Shown: positions 2,106 through 53,653, counted from the stretch's first letter. The stretch: 64,000 nucleotides of DNA from an uncultured Desulfuromonadales bacterium (GCA_903929485.1 CAIYUY010000211.1:3770-67769), one strand, 5' to 3'. A program made the numbers and translations. The notes: generated by a model from the sequence alone, not told the origin.

Positions 2106-2182
2106 CGGGGAGTAGCGCAGCCTGGTAGCGCACCTGTCTTGGGCACAGGGGGCCGCAAGTTCGAATCTTGTCTCCCCGACCA
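2106..2182 (+). tRNA. tRNA-Pro (anticodon TGG)
   Basis: A 77-nt cloverleaf folded by hand. The acceptor stem is cggggag/ctccccg, the anticodon arm is cctgt-CTTGGGC-acagg, the T arm is gcaag-ttcgaat-cttgt, and CCA is encoded. Confidence 0.9.
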
Positions 2183-2191
2183 ACGAATTCT

Positions 2192-2225
2192 ACGGATTGC
2201 GGCATCTGCTGCAATCCGTATTTTT
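2192..2225 (+). terminator. Rho-independent terminator after tRNA-Pro
   Basis: Stem acggattgc / gcaatccgt followed by attttt. Confidence 0.7.
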
Positions 2226-2271
2226 GTACCAGCTCCCCTTCCTCGGGCCAAAGCCACCCATGATGATGGCG

Positions 2272-2739
2272 TTAAGGGTGACTGTCACGGTGAAGCGGAG
2301 GGGATTTGAAGCGGGCGTCTTTCACTAAATAACCGCAGATGGAGATATATTTTGTGTAGTTAATCCCCCGACGCCGGCAATCATAGGCATCCAGAGCCAG
2401 ATGCAACCCTCCGCCGGCCATGGCCCAGAATAAAACAGGCCAAAAATTCATCAGAAGCGCCAAAACGACAAACGGTTCCACCGTGTGAAGAATGTAGAGC
2501 CCTTTGGGCGCATACTCACCCGGCCTCAGTTTCCTCTCCGCTCTATCCTGAACCATGTAATGCCGATACGCGGTTTTCAATCGGGTAATTTTACGAACGA
2601 CGACGAGATAGCGCAGATAGTGGTCAACATCCATAAGCGTGGACGCCGTAACAAAGAGAATCGCCGCCGGAACTCCGGCGGTAATCAAAGGGAGTGAAGC
2701 CGCCATGGCTGCCATGGCCAGATGCTGTTTCGGATACAT
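2272..2739 (-). CDS. Hypothetical polytopic membrane protein
   Basis: The ORF shows several hydrophobic segments. The ATG at 2739 is preceded by GGAGAG. An alternative GTG at 2757 overlaps the upstream stop as GTGA. I recognise no family. Confidence 0.5.
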
Positions 2740-2753
2740 TATCTCTCCAATTG

Positions 2754-3683
2754 TCACCTACAAACCTTGCCGTGGAGAGCCAGATCACTGGGCTCTTGAA
2801 TATCCTTCTGCTGAACCCCTTTTTCAGCAATATCGCGAGCCCTGCTACCGGTCGTCTTCAGTGTCTGGGCATCAAGCTCCATATAGGCAAACGTGTCTAT
2901 GCTTTTGTCGGCGCAGTTCAGCGCATTGGCGAAGAGGATGATATTTTCATCCCCCAGAAACCAGGCGGTATTGATCATTTTCCTGGATTCCGTCCCCCCG
3001 TCGTCGGGCGCCCGGTACAAGAGCACCTCGTTGTCATGGGTATAATAAGGAGTCCATCCCTTGGCGATGAACATTTTTATATTTTCAGCCGTCTGTTTCC
3101 GCGCACTCTCACGAGGATCATACTGCTGCGTTACCTGAACGGGAACGGGAATTGCCGGTTTTTGCGGTATCGCCATGCTTGCGGCCAGGGGTGCGGAAAC
3201 ATGCTTTTTCCCCTTGACGGCATACCTTGAGTTCAACTTGTGAAGCAAATAGGGAGACAATACACGTTTTTGTCTGGAAGTAACTACGTCCAGCAGAGAA
3301 GGAGATTTCATCTCGGCTTTGGCCGCAACAGTAGGATTAGGAACATAACCCCTTTTTGCGGCGGTTGAATTTGCGAAACGATGATCCGCTCCGGCGCCGG
3401 CGGGCTTCAGAGCGTTCTGACGTGACGCCGTCATGATCTTGTGCAGTTCTTTTTTATATGGTTCCTGCCCTGCCACCGATTTTTTGTATTGGCTCTTGTG
3501 CCCAGTGACCTCTTTTTTAGCAGGCATGCTGTACAGAAGAACGGAAACAGCTATGACTATAATTGTTCCGGCTGCGATCATATAGAGTTGAGCCTTGGTT
3601 GGTTTAATTTTCCATTTTTTCGGCGACGTACTCCCCTCATCATTCTGCGGTGCACTGTTTTCTTCCTCGTTGGTCTCTGGCAT
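2754..3683 (-). CDS. Hypothetical single-pass membrane protein (acidic N-terminus, one TM segment, Lys-rich linker, unknown C-terminal domain)
   Basis: The start MPETNEEEN at 3683 is preceded by GGAGGA at 8-nt spacing. The TM segment is LYMIAAGTIIVIAVSVLLY. I recognise no family. Confidence 0.55.
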   Translation of the reverse strand: MPETNEEENSAPQNDEGSTSPKKWKIKPTKAQLYMIAAGTIIVIAVSVLLYSMPAKKEVTGHKSQYKKSVAGQEPYKKELHKIMTASRQNALKPAGAGADHRFANSTAAKRGYVPNPTVAAKAEMKSPSLLDVVTSRQKRVLSPYLLHKLNSRYAVKGKKHVSAPLAASMAIPQKPAIPVPVQVTQQYDPRESARKQTAENIKMFIAKGWTPYYTHDNEVLLYRAPDDGGTESRKMINTAWFLGDENIILFANALNCADKSIDTFAYMELDAQTLKTTGSRARDIAEKGVQQKDIQEPSDLALHGKVCR

Positions 3684-3745
3684 TATCTGAATCCTCCACA
3701 GGACAGACGGGACGGCGCCTGGCCGCACCGGGAGTAACTGAGTTA

Positions 3746-4378
3746 CTATTTGACGGTATAACTGACAACCGTATTGTCGGAACAGGTATAATCTATTTCC
3801 TTCGTCACCATGCGCGATATCCTGCTTGTTCCGGTGTTTATTTTTTTCACGAAGATCAGCAACTTATTTCCAGCCAGAAAATCATAGGTGCCGACCACTG
3901 CCTCATCCTGCTGATATTCATCATTTTTTATTTCACTGGGCTTACGAGTCAAGGAGACTAACCCGTTTTCGGATAATTTGAAATATGCAGCGAACTCCGC
4001 CTGAACTATCCTGTAACAGCAGACATTGTTAAGGGTGCCTCGCATTAATTCACCCATGAGAAGCCCTGTCTGCTTGGGCACGAATGAGTTGATATCCACG
4101 AAATCCGTAACCAATACGGTAGTCTGCCTTCCCCCATCTTTCTCCCCGCGGAAATCCGCCGACTGCTTACCGTTGACAATCTCCCCCTGGCTATCGGTGC
4201 AACTGTTACCACAGATATCACGGGCAATATCCTTGAACAGCGGCTTCAAATCGGTTGCCTTCATCAGCTCCTGTACCGTGCAACCGGAGCCGGTGGACGT
4301 GGGATAGGATCTGGGATCATGGGCGCAGCCGGAAAGTACGCCGAGCAGCATTGCCGCCACCGCCAGGAAACATTTCAT
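3746..4378 (-). CDS. Lipoprotein, FlgO-like outer-membrane protein family
   Basis: Signal peptide with lipobox MKCFLAVAAMLLGVLSGC. The segment VLVTDFVDINS...GLLMGELMRGTL...VVGTY resembles the neighbouring FlgO-type paralog. It shares an ATGA overlap with the upstream gene. Confidence 0.55.
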   Translation of the reverse strand: MKCFLAVAAMLLGVLSGCAHDPRSYPTSTGSGCTVQELMKATDLKPLFKDIARDICGNSCTDSQGEIVNGKQSADFRGEKDGGRQTTVLVTDFVDINSFVPKQTGLLMGELMRGTLNNVCCYRIVQAEFAAYFKLSENGLVSLTRKPSEIKNDEYQQDEAVVGTYDFLAGNKLLIFVKKINTGTSRISRMVTKEIDYTCSDNTVVSYTVK

Positions 4379-5100
4379 CTGGATATATCTTCTATCTTGA
4401 TCCATTTTGACGACTCCAGATCGCTGTTGGACCCTTTTCCCCTCCCCCGAGACGGCATGTCCCCAACGATCTTCATCGTCTTCTGCCGATCTTCATTGGG
4501 AGCAAGGAGCGATTCAGTGAACAAGTCCACCGGCATCCGCAACTGCCCGGAAGAAGCTATGATACCGCTGTTTATATCCACGACCCTCACATTGATGATT
4601 ATGTTATTCTCGGCGATGGAATAAGTACCGGCGACGATGCCGCCGATTTTATACAGATCACGTATTTTCTGGATATCCCTGCTCAAGGAGAACTCACCAG
4701 TGTTGTTTATGATGATATCCTTGGTGAGCCTGACCTCGAATACTTTCCATTTGCGCACCTGCAGCTCATGAATCAGGTTTTCGGAAAGGAGCCGACCGAA
4801 ACTAGTCGTCTCCGACAGGTTGTTCAGATTGGTAATACTGGTCACCACAAAGGTATTATCAAGACTTTTACGGTCGGCGTTTCGTTCTATCTGGTCAGCC
4901 AGGAAAATTATATTTGAATTAAACCTCCCCGCCGCACTTTGACCCCGTTGGATACTGAGTGGTTCATCCACCATGTACCGCTGGTACGCATCGAGCTTTT
5001 CCAGCTCATTGGCATCGGCGAACAGGGGGGGAGTTACGCATCCCCATGCCGCCAGAGTCGCCACCACAAGAACAACACGTATCATTTTATGACCAGTCAT
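4375..5100 (-). CDS. FlgO-family outer-membrane lipoprotein
   Basis: Lipobox LAAWGC. The pattern FVVTSITNLNNLSETTSFGRLLSENLIHELQVRKWKVFEVRL...GEFSLSRD...IVAGTYSI...IINVRVVD matches the FlgO/TolB-N-like family as I recall it. ATGA overlaps are present at both ends. Confidence 0.6.
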   Translation of the reverse strand: MTGHKMIRVVLVVATLAAWGCVTPPLFADANELEKLDAYQRYMVDEPLSIQRGQSAAGRFNSNIIFLADQIERNADRKSLDNTFVVTSITNLNNLSETTSFGRLLSENLIHELQVRKWKVFEVRLTKDIIINNTGEFSLSRDIQKIRDLYKIGGIVAGTYSIAENNIIINVRVVDINSGIIASSGQLRMPVDLFTESLLAPNEDRQKTMKIVGDMPSRGRGKGSNSDLESSKWIKIEDISR

Positions 5101-5369
5101 CTCACACCTCCACAATCGCCCTTACAGTTATCGCTATTTTCCGGCACCAAAATATACTCCGTCTGTTTTGGTCGATAAGATACGGGATAATCCTGGGAAT
5201 TATTCCGGATACCATTATCCCAGACGACGTTGTAGGTTTCCCGCACGCAAAGGTTATCATTTCCGCAGGGGGTAACAATTTTCCGGTGAGAGCCGTTATC
5301 GCTCCGCAAATCCGTCGCGCATCCGGAAACCGAACATGCAAAAATAAAATAACAGAGCAACCTTCTCAT
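5097..5369 (-). CDS. Small hypothetical lipoprotein
   Basis: MRRLLCYFIFACSVSGC signal peptide with lipobox. It is the first gene of a three-gene ATGA-coupled set. I recognise no family. Confidence 0.5.
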   Translation of the reverse strand: MRRLLCYFIFACSVSGCATDLRSDNGSHRKIVTPCGNDNLCVRETYNVVWDNGIRNNSQDYPVSYRPKQTEYILVPENSDNCKGDCGGVR

Positions 5370-5455
5370 AACACGTCTCCTTGTTTTCTGTTCAACAAAC
5401 AAAAACTCCAGCCATTATTACTATCTTCGGTTAAAAATCCAAACTCTTTAGCGTG

Positions 5456-5470
5456 ATCTTGTCTCCTCCG
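5456..5470. repeat. Direct repeat of the tRNA-Pro 3' end (candidate att remnant)
   Basis: atcttgtctcc at 5456-5466 is identical to tRNA-Pro positions 2165-2175. The continuation is tccg here versus ccg in the tRNA. The repeat sits at the GC-content transition. Confidence 0.45.
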
Positions 5471-5586
5471 GCGCCGGGCGACGGCAGTGGGCGCCAGCCG
5501 GTCACGACGACGTGCAGGAACAACTCTTACTTTTTCCAAAGGATGCCGTTCCCGCCAGGACAGGGAACAAAAGCTCCGGAGACGCG

Positions 5587-5618
5587 AAAATGGCGACCCC
5601 TTGCAATGCGGGTCGCCA
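5587..5618 (-). terminator. Rho-independent terminator of the trxA-tlpA-like operon
   Basis: On the minus strand: tggcgaccc-gcattgcaag-gggtcgcca followed by tttt. Confidence 0.65.
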
Positions 5619-5659: not shown

Positions 5660-6184
5660 CTATTTCTCCGCCAATGCCGCCCTGACGGCGGAGTCGATGG
5701 CCTGTTCGCTCTCTTCCGACATTCCTTGGAACCTTTCCACGACGCGCCCTTTACGATTGATCAGAAAAAGAGTCGGCACCGAACGAATACCGAATGCTTC
5801 CTGCAGGGTATCATCCGCCATTGCCACCGGATACGTTATCTTCTTTTCGACGATGAACTCCTTCACAACCCGGTCCCCCGACTCGTCGATACTGAGACCC
5901 AGAACCTGAAATCCCTGCTTTCCGTACTTTTTATTCAGTCTGATGATGGCGGGGATGGATTCCCGGCAAGGGGAGCACCAAGTGGCAAAAAACTGCACAA
6001 GTAGCACACGACCGCCGTAATTAGCGCCGGTGATCCGTTGTCCGGAGGTGGAGACAACCAGCAACGGCGGCGCCTTCTGTCCCTTCTGAAGTCCCAAAGC
6101 CAGGGAAGGGAGCAAACAAGAGACGGCCAGCAAAACCGTTGCCGCCAGACGAAGCCGGCGATGAGAGATGGTGAAGCTCCTCAC
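5660..6184 (-). CDS. TlpA/ResA-type thiol:disulfide oxidoreductase (exported thioredoxin-fold protein)
   Basis: 174 aa with an N-terminal signal sequence, the redox motif FFATWCSPCRESIP, and a cis-Pro region GIRSVPTLFLI. Confidence 0.8.
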   Translation of the reverse strand: MRSFTISHRRLRLAATVLLAVSCLLPSLALGLQKGQKAPPLLVVSTSGQRITGANYGGRVLLVQFFATWCSPCRESIPAIIRLNKKYGKQGFQVLGLSIDESGDRVVKEFIVEKKITYPVAMADDTLQEAFGIRSVPTLFLINRKGRVVERFQGMSEESEQAIDSAVRAALAEK

Positions 6185-6187
6185 AAC

Positions 6188-6517
6188 CTAGAGCGCTTTG
6201 TTAATGAGTGCTTCCAGTTGAGACTTGGGAACCGCGCCGACAACCTGGTCCACAATCACGCCGTCCTTGAAGAGAATTATGGTGGGGATACCTCGTACGC
6301 CATACTTGCCCGGGGTAGCGGGACTGTCATCCACATTGACCTTGCCGATGGATATCCGGCCGTCATACTCTTCGGCAAGCGCATCCAGAACCGGGGCTAT
6401 GGCCTTACAGGGAGCGCACCAGGTGGCCCAGAAGTCCACGAGAACCGGCTTGCCGGAATTAATAACATCCGCGTCAAAGCTATCGTCGGTAATGGTTAGA
6501 ATTTTTTCGCTGGCCAT
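6188..6517 (-). CDS. trxA: Thioredoxin
   Basis: 109 aa with VLVDFWATWCAPCKAIAP...YGVRGIPTIILFKDG. The active site is CAPC rather than CGPC. Confidence 0.9.
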   Translation of the reverse strand: MASEKILTITDDSFDADVINSGKPVLVDFWATWCAPCKAIAPVLDALAEEYDGRISIGKVNVDDSPATPGKYGVRGIPTIILFKDGVIVDQVVGAVPKSQLEALINKAL

Positions 6518-10656: not shown

Positions 10657-11313
10657 GTGATCATATCGTCTAAAAAGAGCAGAACAACCTTCTGCCTGCT
10701 GCTGGCAGTTACTTTCGCCCTGGGCGCCGTTGGTCCCGGCGCTGCCGCCGACAAGAAAAAACAGTCGTCGGCAGTTAAAAGTACGCCGGCGTTGCCGCCA
10801 AGTACGCCGCCGGCAACGCCCCTCCCCTCCTCCCCGCTGGTCACCTCAACCGCCACCGTGACCGCGACCGGAGCGCAAACCGTCGTGAGTAACATAACCC
10901 AGGATGCGGTCAAGGGGGGGGTCCTGGCCTGCGCCGGCCGGATCAACCAAGTGGCCAATTTCCTCACGGGGGGGAACCAGGGGGTCGGCGCATTTATCTT
11001 CCTCCCTCCAACGGATCAGGATCAGCGGCTGACATCATTTTCCATCGAGGTGCCGTCAACCACCGGGGCGTCATCTTATGCCAGCGCCGGTTTCGCGCCC
11101 AATCAGGCCAACGGTTGTGGCGGGATGTATGAGTCGCTGACGTACTGGCCCCAAGGGTGCGCCGCCGTGGCAGCCGGAGCCTACGGCGCCTTGAAACGGG
11201 GAGGAATCCTTGCCAAAGAGATCATGGTGCTTGACGGCGGGCCCATGACCAGAATATTCCTGATGCCGGCCGGAACCGGCTGTCTCTCCATCAAAAAGGA
11301 AATTGTTCTGTAA
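10627..11313 (+). CDS. Hypothetical secreted protein (Ala/Pro/Thr-rich N-terminal region)
   Basis: The signal-like segment is KKSRTTFCLLLAVTFALGAVGPGAAA. The start is ATG 10627 or the in-frame GTG 10657. I recognise no family. Confidence 0.55.
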   Translation: MPETEEEHFTVIISSKKSRTTFCLLLAVTFALGAVGPGAAADKKKQSSAVKSTPALPPSTPPATPLPSSPLVTSTATVTATGAQTVVSNITQDAVKGGVLACAGRINQVANFLTGGNQGVGAFIFLPPTDQDQRLTSFSIEVPSTTGASSYASAGFAPNQANGCGGMYESLTYWPQGCAAVAAGAYGALKRGGILAKEIMVLDGGPMTRIFLMPAGTGCLSIKKEIVL

Positions 11314-48987: not shown

Positions 48988-49329
48988 TTACTTGAGAAAG
49001 GGATGAAGGAAGGATCTTCGGCTCCTGCTTATTCTTCCGCAGCTGGGGCAGACATATTCACGGCAAATGACAACAAAATAGAGTATTCCTGGAATTATTC
49101 CCATGAGTAACAGGAGAATCAGCGTGACACGTCTCCTCCTGCCGCGAAATGAAGAGTTAAAGACGCCGTTGTAGCCGCAGGAATAACAACTTCTGGATCG
49201 CCTTCGCCCCTTCCGGTAAGCATATATATTGGTGATAAAGATTATACCCAGCATGACGACGCTTAACAATACCAATGGAACCATTTTTAACTCTCTCCCC
49301 AAAAACTCCGGAAACTTTTTTTTCATCAT
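48988..49329 (-). CDS. LITAF-like zinc-ribbon membrane protein (tentative)
   Basis: 113 aa. CYSCG, then about 20 aa, then a hydrophobic stretch LILLLLMGIIPGILYFVV, then CPSCG. It lies in a low-GC region. Confidence 0.5.
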   Translation of the reverse strand: MMKKKFPEFLGRELKMVPLVLLSVVMLGIIFITNIYAYRKGRRRSRSCYSCGYNGVFNSSFRGRRRRVTLILLLLMGIIPGILYFVVICREYVCPSCGRISRSRRSFLHPFLK

Positions 49330-49518
49330 TTCCGAAACAAACCGGACTCATTTCAACTAAAACCGTAGCCGAAAACAGGGAGAGCAGTTTCACCGACGCC
49401 ACGCAATGATGTATCGTTTACGAAACATACCGCATCCTTTCACTCCAATCGTGTCATCCATATCACAATGAGACGGATCATATCAATCTAAAAATCAAAC
49501 TTTGTCTCTAACGGGCCG

Positions 49519-49842
49519 CTACCTTGCTCCCTCATCAACCCCCTTGGAATTGAGCCCGAAGGCTTTGGGCGCCCATTCGCCGTCTACCACCTTTATGTAA
49601 TCAACGATCCCGTACGAAACAAGGGATTGTTTGTTTTTGTCACGGGTAGCCGTCACAAATTTCCAGTCGACAAATTCAAGTCCCTCCCAAGGAGGCAGGG
49701 CATAAACTGTTTCAGAAACAGCCTCAGTCGAACCGGTAGCCGCTTTATAGATTTTTTGCTGATGATTGATCAGAAGCGGCTTTTTATAGTTAGCATACAC
49801 GAAGGGAGCTATTACGACTGCCAGAAAGATCCATTTTTTCAT
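49519..49842 (-). CDS. Hypothetical exported protein
   Basis: The ATG at 49842 is preceded by GGAGG. The signal-like N-terminus is MKKWIFLAVVIAPFVYA. I recognise no family. Confidence 0.5.
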   Translation of the reverse strand: MKKWIFLAVVIAPFVYANYKKPLLINHQQKIYKAATGSTEAVSETVYALPPWEGLEFVDWKFVTATRDKNKQSLVSYGIVDYIKVVDGEWAPKAFGLNSKGVDEGAR

Positions 49843-49929
49843 ATGATAACCTCCGAGATTATCCCTCGGGAAAGAAGACAAAGAAAGAGCCCCGAAGTCA
49901 CTGGACTTGGGGGCTCATCTCTGATAGTT

Positions 49930-50016
49930 TGGTGCCGAAGACTGGAATCGAACCAGCACGAGGAATCCCCCACCAGAACCTGAATCTGGCGCGTCTACCA
50001 ATTCCGCCACTTCGGC
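49930..50016 (-). tRNA. tRNA-Leu (anticodon CAG)
   Basis: An 87-nt class II tRNA folded by hand. It begins gccgaagtggcggaattggtagacgc, has the anticodon arm ccaga-TTCAGGT-tctgg, a long variable arm, and ends cttcggcacca. Confidence 0.88.
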
Positions 50017-50921: not shown

Positions 50922-51809
50922 TTACCCTTTTCTCGTAATACCCCTGGCGCCGGGTTTGCGCGGCTCGGAAGGGCGGAGCGTACGCGCCTCGGTTTTCCTT
51001 GCGTCTTTCACCTCATTTCGCTGCAAAGGCTTTGTCTCATGGCGCGTGGAGTTCCCCTGTGGTTTCGGCTGCCTCACCTGGGGCGCCGTCGCCCGGGGAT
51101 CTTCCGCCAGACGCTTCGCCTCTTCCGCCGTCAGTTCCCTGAATTCCCCCGGATTGAGCCCCGCCAGATTGAGAAACCCGTACCGGTTACGCCGGAGGCG
51201 AACCACCGAAAGCCCCACAGCCTCGCACATCCGACGAACCTGACGGTGCCGTCCTTCGTGAATGGTCACGGAAATCCAGGTATTATGTTCACTCTCCTTA
51301 AGCAGGGTGACGGCGGCCGGCGCCGTACGACCATCCTCCAGGGTGACGCCGGCGGCAAGCCGGGCGACCTGGGCAGGGGAAACCCCACCCTGAACCCGCA
51401 CATGATACTCCTTGTCAATCTCGTAGCGGGGATGAGCCAAACGGTTGGCCCAGTCGCCGTCGTTGGTCAGGAGTAACAACCCTTCGCTATTATAGTCAAG
51501 CCGTCCCACGGGATACACCCGTTCCCCGATCCCCTTGAGAAGGTCGATAACGAGCGGTCGCCCCTCCGGGTCCTTCAAGGTTGTCATATACCCTGAAGGC
51601 TTATAGAGGAGAATATACCGCTTCGTGGTTGCGACGAGCAGTGGTTTGCCATCCACCACAATCATATCATGATCCGGATCGGCCTTGGTTCCCAGTTCGA
51701 CAACTACCGCGCCGTTCACCGCCACCCTGCCGGCGGTAATCATGGTTTCAGCCTGGCGCCGGGAGGCGATTCCGGCTTGGGACAACAGTTTCTGCAAACG
51801 TTCCTGCAT
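50922..51809 (-). CDS. rluB: 23S rRNA pseudouridine synthase, RluB type
   Basis: S4 domain RLQKLLSQAGIASRRQAE..I..GRV.VNG, catalytic GRLDYNSEGLLLLTNDG, and a basic C-terminal tail. Confidence 0.85.
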   Translation of the reverse strand: MQERLQKLLSQAGIASRRQAETMITAGRVAVNGAVVVELGTKADPDHDMIVVDGKPLLVATTKRYILLYKPSGYMTTLKDPEGRPLVIDLLKGIGERVYPVGRLDYNSEGLLLLTNDGDWANRLAHPRYEIDKEYHVRVQGGVSPAQVARLAAGVTLEDGRTAPAAVTLLKESEHNTWISVTIHEGRHRQVRRMCEAVGLSVVRLRRNRYGFLNLAGLNPGEFRELTAEEAKRLAEDPRATAPQVRQPKPQGNSTRHETKPLQRNEVKDARKTEARTLRPSEPRKPGARGITRKG

Positions 51810-52098
51810 AAGGACTCCCAAAAAACAAAGTCAAGGTTTCAGGCCAAGGTTTCAAAAACCCTTTCCAGCTCCTTGACCTTGAACGTAAAGCGCCTCTTCC
51901 TCGGCTTGCGCCGGGAAGCGCGACAATTCAAAAAAATTCGTCAACAGTCCCAAGTAAATGTTTTTCAGCCATGGTTAACCCGGAGCTTTGCACCTGCAAG
52001 ACTCTGTTTAGCGCCGGTTTCGACAAAAATAATCAAGCTAGCCTATCACGTAACCGTGCAGCGGTGCAACAGATTAAACATAAACACTTTCAATAAAT

Positions 52099-52123
52099 AT
52101 GAAAATTATTTAAAAATTTTCAT
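52099..52123. promoter_or_regulatory. Perfect inverted repeat ATGAAAATT-N7-AATTTTCAT (candidate operator)
   Basis: Read directly from the sequence, in an AT-rich region 66 nt upstream of the small ORF at 52189. Confidence 0.5.
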
Positions 52124-52188
52124 TGCATATTGACAATTTTTTTCATACTATCTCTCTCGCGGAACACCACACGAGAAGGAGGAAACTC

Positions 52189-52356
52189 ATGGGATATGCG
52201 GAGGGAGCGAAGGTAAGAATCAAATCGACGGGAGAGGCAGCGGAAGTGCTGTTTGATTGGCGGGAGGTTCCAGGTAATGAGGACGACGCTTTCCCCGTGG
52301 AATTAAGGGGATATGATGACGGCTTCGCCGCCGAGGAAGTGGAACTGATGAGGTAG
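52189..52356 (+). CDS. Small acidic hypothetical protein (55 aa)
   Basis: A strong RBS (GAAGGAGGA) lies 6 nt before the ATG, and the ORF is followed by a terminator hairpin. I recognise no family. Confidence 0.5.
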   Translation: MGYAEGAKVRIKSTGEAAEVLFDWREVPGNEDDAFPVELRGYDDGFAAEEVELMR

Positions 52357-52377
52357 GGAAACAGCTTAATCACAAGA

Positions 52378-52411
52378 GAAAAGCCTCTGCTACCCACGGA
52401 GGCTTTTCTTT
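52378..52411. terminator. Bidirectional terminator hairpin between convergent small ORFs
   Basis: Perfect 10-bp stem gaaaagcctc / gaggcttttc with an 11-nt loop. T-rich sequence follows on both strands. Confidence 0.65.
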
Positions 52412-52423
52412 CAATGGCACTGT

Positions 52424-52627
52424 TTACCGGTTGACCGGCAATTCACCGGCCTGCGTCAGCTTTGCTCGATCAGGATGAATGCATAAATTGAAATCCAGGC
52501 CAAACAGGATCAAATGATTGCAAACATACGGTTCGTCCACCAGACACTGATACGCGTTACACTCTCCCTCGAAATAAAGATGAGTCTGGCAAATCCGTTC
52601 GTCGGGCAATAGTGCTTCATTATTCAT
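52424..52627 (-). CDS. Small Cys-rich hypothetical protein (67 aa)
   Basis: The ATG at 52627 is preceded by GAGGTG. The ORF contains six Cys residues and lies in a low-GC region downstream of accA. Coding status is uncertain. Confidence 0.35.
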   Translation of the reverse strand: MNNEALLPDERICQTHLYFEGECNAYQCLVDEPYVCNHLILFGLDFNLCIHPDRAKLTQAGELPVNR

Positions 52628-52699
52628 GTGACACCTCGAATGTGATGTCACGCAAGAATACTTAAAAAAAACAAACGTGTCAATATATATTCATTACAT

Positions 52700-53653
52700 C
52701 TAAAGCTCCGTGAATCGCGACATCTTACGGAACTTGTCATACCGCTGCTGAACCAACTCCTCCGGAGTAAGTTTTTGTAACTCCCGCAGGTTGCGGCTAA
52801 GAGCTTCAGCCAAACTCGCGGAGATGGCGGCATAGTCACCATGAGCACCACCGATGGGTTCCGTGACGATCTCGTCTATGACCTCCAACTCTTTGATATC
52901 CCGAGCCGTCAGTTTGAGCGCCTCGGCAGCCTGTGGCCCCTTGGTTCCATCGGACCAGAGGATAGCGGCGCACCCTTCGGGAGAGATGACGGCATAGACG
53001 GAAAATTCCAGCATGAGAATCCGATCCCCCACGGCAATGGCCAGCGCACCGCCGGAGCCCCCCTCACCGGTAACACAGACGATAATGGGAACCCGAAGAC
53101 GTGACATCTCCCGAAGATTGCGGGCAATAGCCTCGGCCTGCCCCCGCTCCTCGGCGCCGATGCCGGGGAAGGCGCCGGGGGTATCCACAAAGGTAATGAT
53201 GGGAAGATTAAACCGCTCCGCCATTTCCATGAGACGCAGCGCCTTACGATACCCTTCCGGGTTCGGCATGCCGAAGTTGCGAAAAACCTTATCCTTGGTG
53301 TCGCGCCCCTTCTGATGACCGATGACCATGACCGGTTCACCGTTCAACCGAGCCGGACCAGCCACGATGGCATGATCATCGCCGTAAAGCCGGTCACCAT
53401 GGAGTTCGGTGAAGTCGGTAAAGATCCGTCCGAGATAATCAAGCGCATAGGGACGATTGGGATGACGCGCCACCTGGGCGGTCTGCCACCGGGTCAGGTT
53501 GGCGAAAATTTCTTTCCGCATCTGCTCAGCCATCTTCTCCAGCGTGGCGATTTCCGTCTGAAGCAGTTCGGGAGAAACAGCCATCAGCTCCCGAATCTTT
53601 TTTTCCAGCTCGACTACCGGTTTTTCAAATTCCAGATAAAATGGCGTCGCCAT
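52700..53653 (-). CDS. accA: Acetyl-CoA carboxylase carboxyltransferase subunit alpha
   Basis: 317 aa with LEFEKP..ELE.KI.EL...RHP.RPY.LDY....F..F.ELHGDR...D.AIV.G.A...G.PV..IGHQKG and FVDTPGA.PG. Confidence 0.95.

Follow-up and report, generated by a model that had tools for sequence, protein, structure and literature searches.

A low-GC islet beside tRNA-Pro in an uncultured member of the Geobacteraceae as a probable old operon of FlgO-family lipoproteins

In a 64,000-nucleotide stretch of DNA from an uncultured Desulfuromonadales bacterium (GCA_903929485.1, CAIYUY010000211.1:3770-67769; hereafter "the window"), an islet of five genes, g1 to g5, with a low guanine-plus-cytosine (GC) content lies between a tRNA-Pro gene and the genes tlpA and trxA. 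An initial annotation had described it as an element inserted at the 3' end of the tRNA and bounded by an 11-nucleotide (nt) repeat of the tRNA end. Comparison with related loci, denoted here by L numbers, leads us to a different reading. We consider it likely that g5-g4-g3-g2 form an old, vertically inherited, FliA-controlled FlgO operon that has kept its low GC, that the 11-mer is a chance match, and that g1 is a gene specific to the species of the window.

The low-GC block and its five genes

The islet begins 9 nt past the end of tRNA-Pro (2182), and g1 ends at 2272 (Table 1). Between positions 2183 and 5452 the GC content is 0.495; it is 0.601 to the left of the block, 0.573 to its right and 0.575 over the entire window. 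The block value is the minimum among all 3.27-kb windows of the 64 kb (mean 0.574, standard deviation 0.025) and lies about three standard deviations below the mean. The GC content at third codon positions (GC3) is 0.50-0.60 for the five block genes versus 0.64-0.79 for rph, rdgB, tlpA, trxA, nadD, rlmH and gpmI. The block is compositionally atypical by both measures, and the AT-rich segment described earlier beside tRNA-Pro is real. Its true right-hand edge is the terminator hairpin of tlpA, which was missed by the terminator scan and has equivalents in L002, L083 and L169. On the other side, all 77 of the 77 nt of tRNA-Pro are the same in L001, L002 and L083 (exact matches in the alignment), and a hairpin is found at the position equivalent to the tRNA-Pro terminator in L083 and L002.

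The block consists of five open reading frames (ORFs) on the minus strand, of which g5, g4 and g3 carry lipoprotein signals, g2 encodes a single-pass membrane protein and g1 a hydrophobic protein with several helices. All five products are thus envelope proteins, as had been proposed, and no integrase or other mobility domain was detected in them with Pfam or NCBIfam, which bears out the earlier description of a block devoid of mobility genes. Start and stop codons overlap as ATGA where g5 meets g4 and where g4 meets g3, and the start of g1 lies 15 nt beyond g2; because of these overlaps and the short gap we regard the five genes as one operon.

Lipoprotein signals were read from the sequence as ending in LAAWGC for g4, VLSGC for g3 and SVSGC for g5, and every sequence in the alignments of g5 and of g3 has the lipidation Cys. 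The product of g4 matched the Pfam family PF17680 (FlgO) with E=1.7e-34 and 118.9 bits (cut-off 22.6) and the Vibrio cholerae FlgO structures 9YDS/9YFG with E=1.5e-14; its 323 homologues are found chiefly in Geobacteraceae and Desulfuromonadales. The match of g3 to PF17680 is weak (27 bits) and still over the same cut-off, and all nine of nine g3 orthologues match this family. No direct match to g3 was found in the PDB, and the g3 family profile gave nothing significant against PDB sequences. On the combination of profile match and lipoprotein signal, both g4 and g3 can be assigned to the FlgO family. An alignment of 10 orthologues of g5, which is the first gene of the module in every case, revealed two further invariant Cys residues and a DYPVSYR motif. 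No match to g5 was found in Pfam, and its family profile likewise gave no significant match to PDB sequences. A functional tie of the Cys-rich lipoproteins to TlpA/TrxA was considered and set aside because the g5-g4-g3 trio is found away from tlpA in five other contexts and because the two units are separated by a terminator.

The remaining two proteins are more restricted in their distribution. The g2 family is limited to a narrow clade, with 7 cluster representatives among 1.8e9, and has no match in Pfam; an AlphaFold2 model built from a 5-sequence alignment reached a mean predicted local distance difference test (pLDDT) score of ~50. For g1, no family match was found in Pfam or NCBIfam, the AlphaFold2 model (2 sequences) also had a mean pLDDT of ~50, and a search of 5.8e9 proteins returned one relative besides g1 itself, at 57% identity.

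Table 1. Features of the islet and its surroundings in the window, followed by the g5 promoters of related loci
Feature	Position (nt)	Strand	Description
tRNA-Pro (anticodon UGG)	2106-2182	+	ARAGORN; Rfam tRNA, 64 bits
11-mer, copy 1	2165-2175	+	ATCTTGTCTCC; in the tRNA T-arm/acceptor stem; ends 7 nt before the tRNA 3' end
tRNA-Pro intrinsic terminator	2191-2226	+	hairpin 2191-2220; 13-bp stem, then TTTTT
g1	2272-2739	-	155-aa hydrophobic helical protein, DVDH motif; last operon gene; converges on the tRNA
g2	2754-3683	-	309 aa; N-terminal tail, one transmembrane helix (~30-52), long low-complexity linker, conserved C-terminal alpha/beta domain (~190-309)
g3	3746-4378	-	210-aa lipoprotein, lipobox LSGC; divergent FlgO paralogue; start overlaps g4 stop (ATGA)
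g4	4375-5100	-	241-aa FlgO-family lipoprotein; 236 aa from the second ATG (5085); start overlaps g5 stop
g5	5097-5369	-	90-aa lipoprotein, lipobox VSGC
Predicted sigma-28 (FliA) type promoter	5424-5450	-	TAAAGAGT-N11-ACCGAAGA; starts 81 nt upstream of the g5 ATG
11-mer, copy 2	5456-5466	+	ATCTTGTCTCC; 5 nt upstream of the -35 element of the g5 promoter; stretch not conserved in orthologous loci
tlpA terminator hairpin	5586-5617	-	GGCGACCC...GGGTCGCC, then ATTTTCG on the minus strand; read from sequence
tlpA	5660-6184	-	Pfam, NCBIfam
trxA	6188-6517	-	Pfam, NCBIfam
g5 promoter, L002 (predicted)			TAAAGAGT-N11-ACCGATAA
g5 promoter, L081 (predicted)			TAAAGAGT-N11-GCCGATAA; perfect -10
g5 promoter, L083 (predicted)			TAAAGAGT-N11-GCCGATAT
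g5 promoter, L169 (predicted)			TAAAGAGT-N11-TCCGATGA
g5 promoter, L086, Geotalea (predicted)			TAAAGGAT-N11-GCCGATAG; context unrelated to that of the window
g5 promoter, L172 (predicted)			TAAAGGGA-N11-CCCGATAA; context unrelated to that of the window

The block in related lineages

The window belongs to an uncultured species of the Geobacteraceae (lineage of MAG GCA_903944945.1) that is represented on at least 22 contigs from metagenomes or metagenome-assembled genomes (MAGs), and the five genes are the same on each. The order trxA-tlpA-g5-g4-g3-g2 was found in this species and in L002, L081/L082, L083 and L169/L170, that is, in five Geobacteraceae lineages, with a dip in GC in each; tlpA and trxA are conserved as neighbours of the islet in five of the five lineages of this subclade. 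What lies beyond g2 varies. In L083, g2 directly abuts tRNA-Pro-rdgB, and in L002 a small ORF stands between tRNA-Pro and g2. In L081/L082, g2 is followed by a helicase-fragment gene and an HATPase_c_4 gene, after which the contig ends. In L169/L170 the block (GC 0.40-0.43 versus 0.55-0.62) lies between moeA and a run of genes for a PAS histidine kinase, pth, L25 and prs, with no tRNA within 8 kb. Because L169/L170 keeps trxA-tlpA-g5-g4-g3-g2 with a histidine kinase and no tRNA on the other side, the islet is linked to tlpA and not to the tRNA.

Pairwise identities among the five lineages are 0.77-0.84 for trxA+tlpA, 0.71-0.77 for g4+g3 and 0.45-0.66 for g5+g2. The identity matrices are star-like. 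Both for g4+g3 and for g5+g2 the lineage farthest from the others is L169, which for the flank is also one of the farthest, and this fits the prediction of co-divergence. Judged from these matrices, the island and flank proteins appear to have diverged together.

The g5-g4-g3 trio was also found in other contexts, namely in Geotalea (L086), GWC2_58_44 (L172/173), L171, a Desulfuromonadaceae MAG (L087) and Geobacter sp. AOG2 (L084). In L171 a che gene cluster lies next to the module, which is accompanied by a g2-like gene, and in L172 the module stands beside genes for a glycosyltransferase and an MshE-type ATPase. In Geotalea and L172 the GC of the trio comes close to that of the host. In AOG2 (L084, 679-9500) it stands in a region with tRNA-Pro(GGG), a tyrosine integrase, AlpA, DUF3987, a second IHF/HU paralogue, ORFs down to 0.32 GC and Rhs/SpvB toxin genes. 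Here the trio is 9 kb from the integrase, which is next to the tRNA; it has a host-like GC and a GC3 above that of the surrounding mobile DNA, and no attachment (att) repeat of tRNA-Pro(GGG) bounding the integrase region was found within 20 kb. L089, whose TlpA is 75% identical to that of the window, carries at 623-925 an IHF-like gene that resembles the IHF paralogue borne on the island of AOG2 more closely than it does the chromosomal paralogue; what lies beyond this gene falls outside the short contig. Neither the 80 rdgB loci nor the 7 close tlpA loci, the latter from a metagenome TlpA scan and all on short contigs, showed an empty site with rdgB-tRNA-Pro abutting tlpA. In Geomonas and others, a tRNA-Pro-Arg-His-Leu array follows rdgB.

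The tRNA-proximal end of the islet behaves differently from the rest. Presence and absence are polymorphic for g1 only, while g2-g5 occupy the site in all five lineages: g1 is present in all contigs of the window species and missing from L002, L081, L083 and L169. Its relative is located in L178 (3030-3858; also in L179 and L180), in low-GC (0.42-0.50) accessory DNA with an SRAP peptidase, an IHF-like gene, UPF0270 and small ORFs, and converges on the 3' end of tRNA-Gln(UUG) in the same geometry as g1 and tRNA-Pro. The slot between tRNA-Pro and g2 is empty in L083 and holds a 69-amino-acid Cys-rich ORF in L002. In the MAG L001, which has the rdgB nearest to that of the window (82%), the gene directly 3' of the identical tRNA-Pro encodes a type III restriction enzyme (ResIII + RE_endonuc; 2748-5219, minus strand), and the contig stops before the far side of the locus. 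We tried to join L081 and L001 as one sister-lineage locus; there was no overlap of DNA and the link is unproven. The content of the interval from tRNA-Pro to tlpA therefore differs among relatives, and the 3' flank of tRNA-Pro(UGG) appears to be a small variable slot, whose variable segment would end at the g1/g2 junction and not at 5456. No repeat of the tRNA end of at least 9 nt was found at this junction. From its distribution, g1 is probably a species-specific, recent accessory gain at the tRNA-proximal end.

The Cys-rich ORF (MKLTCxNGTPELYPDNC...) has no match in Pfam and is missing from the window, L081 and L169. It lies beside tRNA-Pro in L002 (10826-11035) and between g5 and tlpA in L083 (9242-9451), and the two copies are 75% identical. 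Comparison of the two arrangements indicates that one of the two elements, this ORF or the islet, must have moved.

One further contig of the window species, from a MAG of sample ERZ1426515, carries a g4 of which 81% of the length is 100% identical and the remainder divergent; a 324-amino-acid gene with a PPK2 match comes next, and there the contig ends. A second contig from this sample starts inside the islet, and the arrangement is probably an assembly break or chimera within the islet.

The region upstream of g5

A conserved box upstream of g5 corresponds to a predicted sigma-28 (FliA) type promoter. The sigma-28 consensus is TAAAGTTT-n11-GCCGATAA (PMC2859248), and for fliC of Geobacter such sites have been predicted in the upstream DNA (PMC2577667). 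The match was found by reading the conserved box and not by a scan; a sigma-70 consensus scan upstream of g5 revealed no promoter. The two elements of the window score 6/8 and 5/8 against the consensus, rising to 6/8 and 8/8 in L081, at a spacing of exactly 11 nt. Seven of 11 lineages, in three unrelated genomic contexts, have TAAAGAGT-N11-[A/G/T]CCGA... upstream of g5. The pattern TAAAG-N15-CCGAW occurs once in the 64-kb window, at the g5 promoter, with 0.2 matches expected; across the loci its background is ~2-3e-6 for each nt and strand, which gives ~5e-4 for an upstream region of 200 nt. L171 and L087 have GCCGATAA/GCCGATAC with less regular -35 elements.

In the che-cluster context of L171, a second sigma-28-type match (11032-11056) was observed a short way past the FlgO module and a CsgG-like gene and upstream of a 248-amino-acid gene.

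The far copy of the 11-mer, ATCTTGTCTCC, lies beside this promoter. The initial annotation was correct that the 11-mer recurs exactly at the far end of the islet: there are exactly two copies in the window and none in 100 shuffles. An exact match of at least 11 nt between a 77-nt segment and the next 3.4 kb was obtained for 18% of random segments of this window, and the empirical chance of a match anywhere in the islet is 10-18%. Within one given 290-nt slot the chance falls to 1.3%, and to 0.4% for the 3' 37 nt. The repeat is uncommon and not extraordinary. In 1.76 Mb of related loci ATCTTGTCTCC occurs outside the tRNA solely on contigs of the window species. The same tRNA end has chance matches in relatives, with a 12-mer in rdgB of L002, an 11-mer in a DHH gene of L001 and a 10-mer in a DHH gene of L083.

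At the site orthologous to the 11-mer at 5456, L002 has TTCTTGAGAAA, L081 ATGTGGGGAGG, L083 ATCTGGTGCGG and L169 ATACGTATGCG. In all four relatives the last five bases match the tRNA at 0-1 positions, which is at or below chance, while the 13-15 nt immediately beside the site are nearly invariant across lineages. The role of the 11-mer as an att repeat bounding the islet is accordingly not borne out. The att cores of tRNA-targeting integrases normally contain the 3' end of the tRNA. An att site that stayed perfect in one lineage and was randomised in four star-like sisters would be much less likely than a lineage-specific coincidence. We therefore take the copy at 5456 to be, most likely, a fortuitous match in the non-conserved DNA upstream of the promoter.

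Origin and possible role of the operon

Under the reading of an old FliA-controlled operon, g5-g4-g3-g2 (2754-5369) would encode a small Cys lipoprotein, two FlgO-family lipoproteins and a membrane-anchored periplasmic protein. Transcription would proceed from the sigma-28 type promoter at 5424-5450, with a predicted start ~7 nt downstream of the NCCGATAA box, and g5, g4 and g3 would be translationally coupled. The three lipoproteins may be lipid-anchored at the inner face of the outer membrane and, by analogy with FlgO of Vibrio, may form a ring or disk at the flagellar basal body, and g2 may span the periplasm from the inner membrane toward them. The promoter match and the homology to FlgO are seen in the sequences themselves, whereas a place at the flagellum, the way the products assemble and what g2 does are inferred. 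The low GC appears to be a property that the module has kept in most lineages and not the scar of a recent insertion.

Several observations weigh against this reading. No flagellar structural gene adjoins the islet in the window, a statement that covers the adjoining genes only, as no screen of the window for fliA or flagellar genes was made. No FlgP (LPP20) or FlgT partner was found in the operon by Pfam searches with g5, g2 and g1 or with the g5 profile against the PDB, and the -10 element of the window, ACCGAAGA (5/8), is the weakest of the set. The module lies 6-10 GC points below its flanks in several lineages, and an ancient foreign origin is therefore possible. The islet is missing beside tlpA in L089 (IHF-like gene) and in L091-094 (plsC-MFS), so it was gained or lost at some point in the family. 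The Cys-rich ORF borders the islet on the tRNA-Pro side in L002 and on the tlpA side in L083, which shows rearrangement at both junctions. Finally, the verdict of coincidence for the 11-mer rests mainly on the comparative data, because the slot-specific chance is just ~0.4-1.3%.

One alternative is that g5-g2 were gained horizontally next to tlpA in the ancestor of the subclade, by illegitimate or homologous recombination, that their GC has not yet reached the host level, and that the position beside tRNA-Pro results from a later rearrangement. This would account for a GC3 deficit of 0.05-0.25 in five of the five lineages, for the loci where tlpA stands without the islet, for the many contexts of the module across the family and for the restriction of g2 to a narrow clade. 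However, homologues of g4 are overwhelmingly from Geobacteraceae/Desulfuromonadales, with identities like those of housekeeping proteins, and because of this concentration the donor would itself be a close relative. Moreover, the near-host GC of the trio in Geotalea and L172 speaks against such a gain, and a low GC3 would be expected as well of genes that are weakly expressed and evolve fast. We regard this alternative as rather doubtful.

The second alternative concerns the function of the products. The operon could encode a non-flagellar envelope complex, in which the FlgO-like (TolB-N-like) lipoproteins would serve in outer-membrane/peptidoglycan maintenance or in export and the conserved box would be bound by a factor other than sigma-28. 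The neighbours of the islet in the subclade of the window (trxA/tlpA, rdgB and a histidine kinase, with no adjoining flagellar gene), the glycosyltransferase and MshE-type ATPase in L172, and the name "TolB-like protein" given to homologues by JGI are all consistent with this, as is the lack of detectable FlgP/FlgT in the operon. A survey, in addition, reported no FlgO/FlgP homologues in the sampled delta-proteobacteria (PMC5758724). On the other side, both sigma-28 elements are matched by the box in seven lineages, across three contexts and exactly 11 nt apart; g4 can be aligned to FlgO of the flagellum, whose structure is solved, with the E-value given above; the module of L171 is beside che genes; and Arcobacter provides a precedent for FlgO without FlgP (PMC5758724). 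A non-flagellar role seems unlikely, yet it is a real alternative.

How far the flagellar assignment can be taken is best seen from known systems. FlgO of Vibrio cholerae is a lipoprotein anchored to the outer membrane by its N-terminal Cys and forms a 58-fold (C58) ring with FlgP in the flagellar H-ring (bioRxiv 10.64898/2025.12.02.691832). The islet resembles the Vibrio flgO-flgP/flgT genes in that g4 is a homologue and g3 a paralogue of FlgO, in its lipoprotein signals and in the sigma-28 type promoter of the operon. It differs in the lack of a detected FlgP (LPP20)/FlgT, in having two FlgO paralogues, an unrelated 90-amino-acid lipoprotein and a clade-specific membrane protein, in its location outside a flagellar gene cluster, and in its Geobacteraceae host. 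Membership in a Vibrio-type H-ring is not established, because FlgP/FlgT were not found in the operon. Arcobacter, where FlgO occurs but FlgP does not and where the outer membrane carries a disk of concentric rings (PMC5758724), is a precedent for a FlgO-based outer-membrane disk outside the Gammaproteobacteria; there, however, that FlgO belongs to the disk is itself no more than a suspicion, and g5 and g2 of the islet are unrelated to PflA/PflB. Compared with class III sigma-28/FliA promoters, the g5 promoter matches both elements at 11 nt and is conserved across lineages and contexts, whereas the site is known only as a match to the consensus. We tentatively suggest, as a possibility on which we would place limited confidence, that in Geobacteraceae/Desulfuromonadales a FliA-controlled module of two FlgO paralogues and a small Cys lipoprotein, joined by g2 in one subclade, builds an outer-membrane flagellar ring or disk without FlgP/FlgT.

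The weakest alternative is the original one, by which a five-gene element integrated at the 3' end of tRNA-Pro, lost its integrase and left ATCTTGTCTCC at 5456 as the remnant of the distal att site. As in tRNA-linked islands with a tyrosine integrase, the islet has a lower GC and stands directly 3' of a tRNA, there is a short tRNA repeat at its far end, and the tRNA-proximal slot varies in sister lineages. The 11-mer is exact, in direct orientation and in the boundary intergenic region, with the low slot-specific chance already given; if one indel is allowed, the match reaches ~15/18 nt (read from sequence), and apart from the tRNA the 11-mer occurs nowhere else in the related loci. The trio of AOG2 near its tyrosine integrase and the lineages that lack the islet beside tlpA point in the same direction. 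Yet although position and composition are those of a tRNA-linked island, no traceable att repeat, mobility gene or empty site was found: the repeat spans 11 nt, leaves out the 3' terminus of the tRNA and lacks conservation in orthologous loci. Four of the five islet genes form a conserved operon that is tied to tlpA even in L169/170, where there is no tRNA. Because five lineages with ~20% divergence in TrxA+TlpA have this four-gene block in common, an insertion would have to be older than all five, yet one of them keeps the 11-mer perfectly and four are at or below chance. The tRNA-Pro-Arg-His-Leu arrays that follow rdgB in other Geobacteraceae argue that the junction of tRNA-Pro and islet arose by a larger rearrangement and not by simple insertion. 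Relatives of g4 and g1 were not found on plasmids or phages (tblastn) or on viral contigs (IMG/VR pattern scans), and in AOG2 the trio has a higher GC3 than the surrounding mobile DNA and no bounding att repeat. With g2-g5 carried by relatives at the same low GC and no empty site, an outcome that the initial annotation had itself named as speaking against its proposal, integration of the five genes at the tRNA is very improbable. The related claim of recent acquisition survives in part: g1 looks newly gained, but g2-g5 are shared by relatives in the same place and order and at the same low GC.

The islet is a cautionary case, in which low GC, a neighbouring tRNA and an 11-nt repeat mimic an integration scar and comparison reveals a conserved operon. 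As a by-product, the comparison brought up a family-wide, sigma-28-promoted operon with two FlgO paralogues in the Geobacteraceae, a modestly interesting lead that is perhaps a variant of the flagellar outer-membrane accessory genes. If the module is indeed flagellar, FlgO-based outer-membrane motor accessories would not be restricted to Gamma- and Epsilonproteobacteria, and a ring or disk would extend H-ring/basal-disk embellishments to a lineage where homology surveys reported none. It would also offer a concrete gene set for deletion in a culturable Geobacter or Geotalea.

Two further low-GC patches were observed in the window. The first (48990-49900, GC 0.44-0.49) is located directly 3' of tRNA-Leu(CAG) (49930-50016, minus strand) and contains two small minus-strand ORFs with hydrophobic segments, at 48988-49329 (113 amino acids) and 49519-49881 (120 amino acids), a pattern like that of g1 beside tRNA-Pro. 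The second, of ~900 bp with a GC of 0.46 (51820-52700), lies between a rluB-like gene (50922-51821) and accA (52700-53653) and contains no ORF of at least 110 amino acids; it could hold small genes or an RNA.

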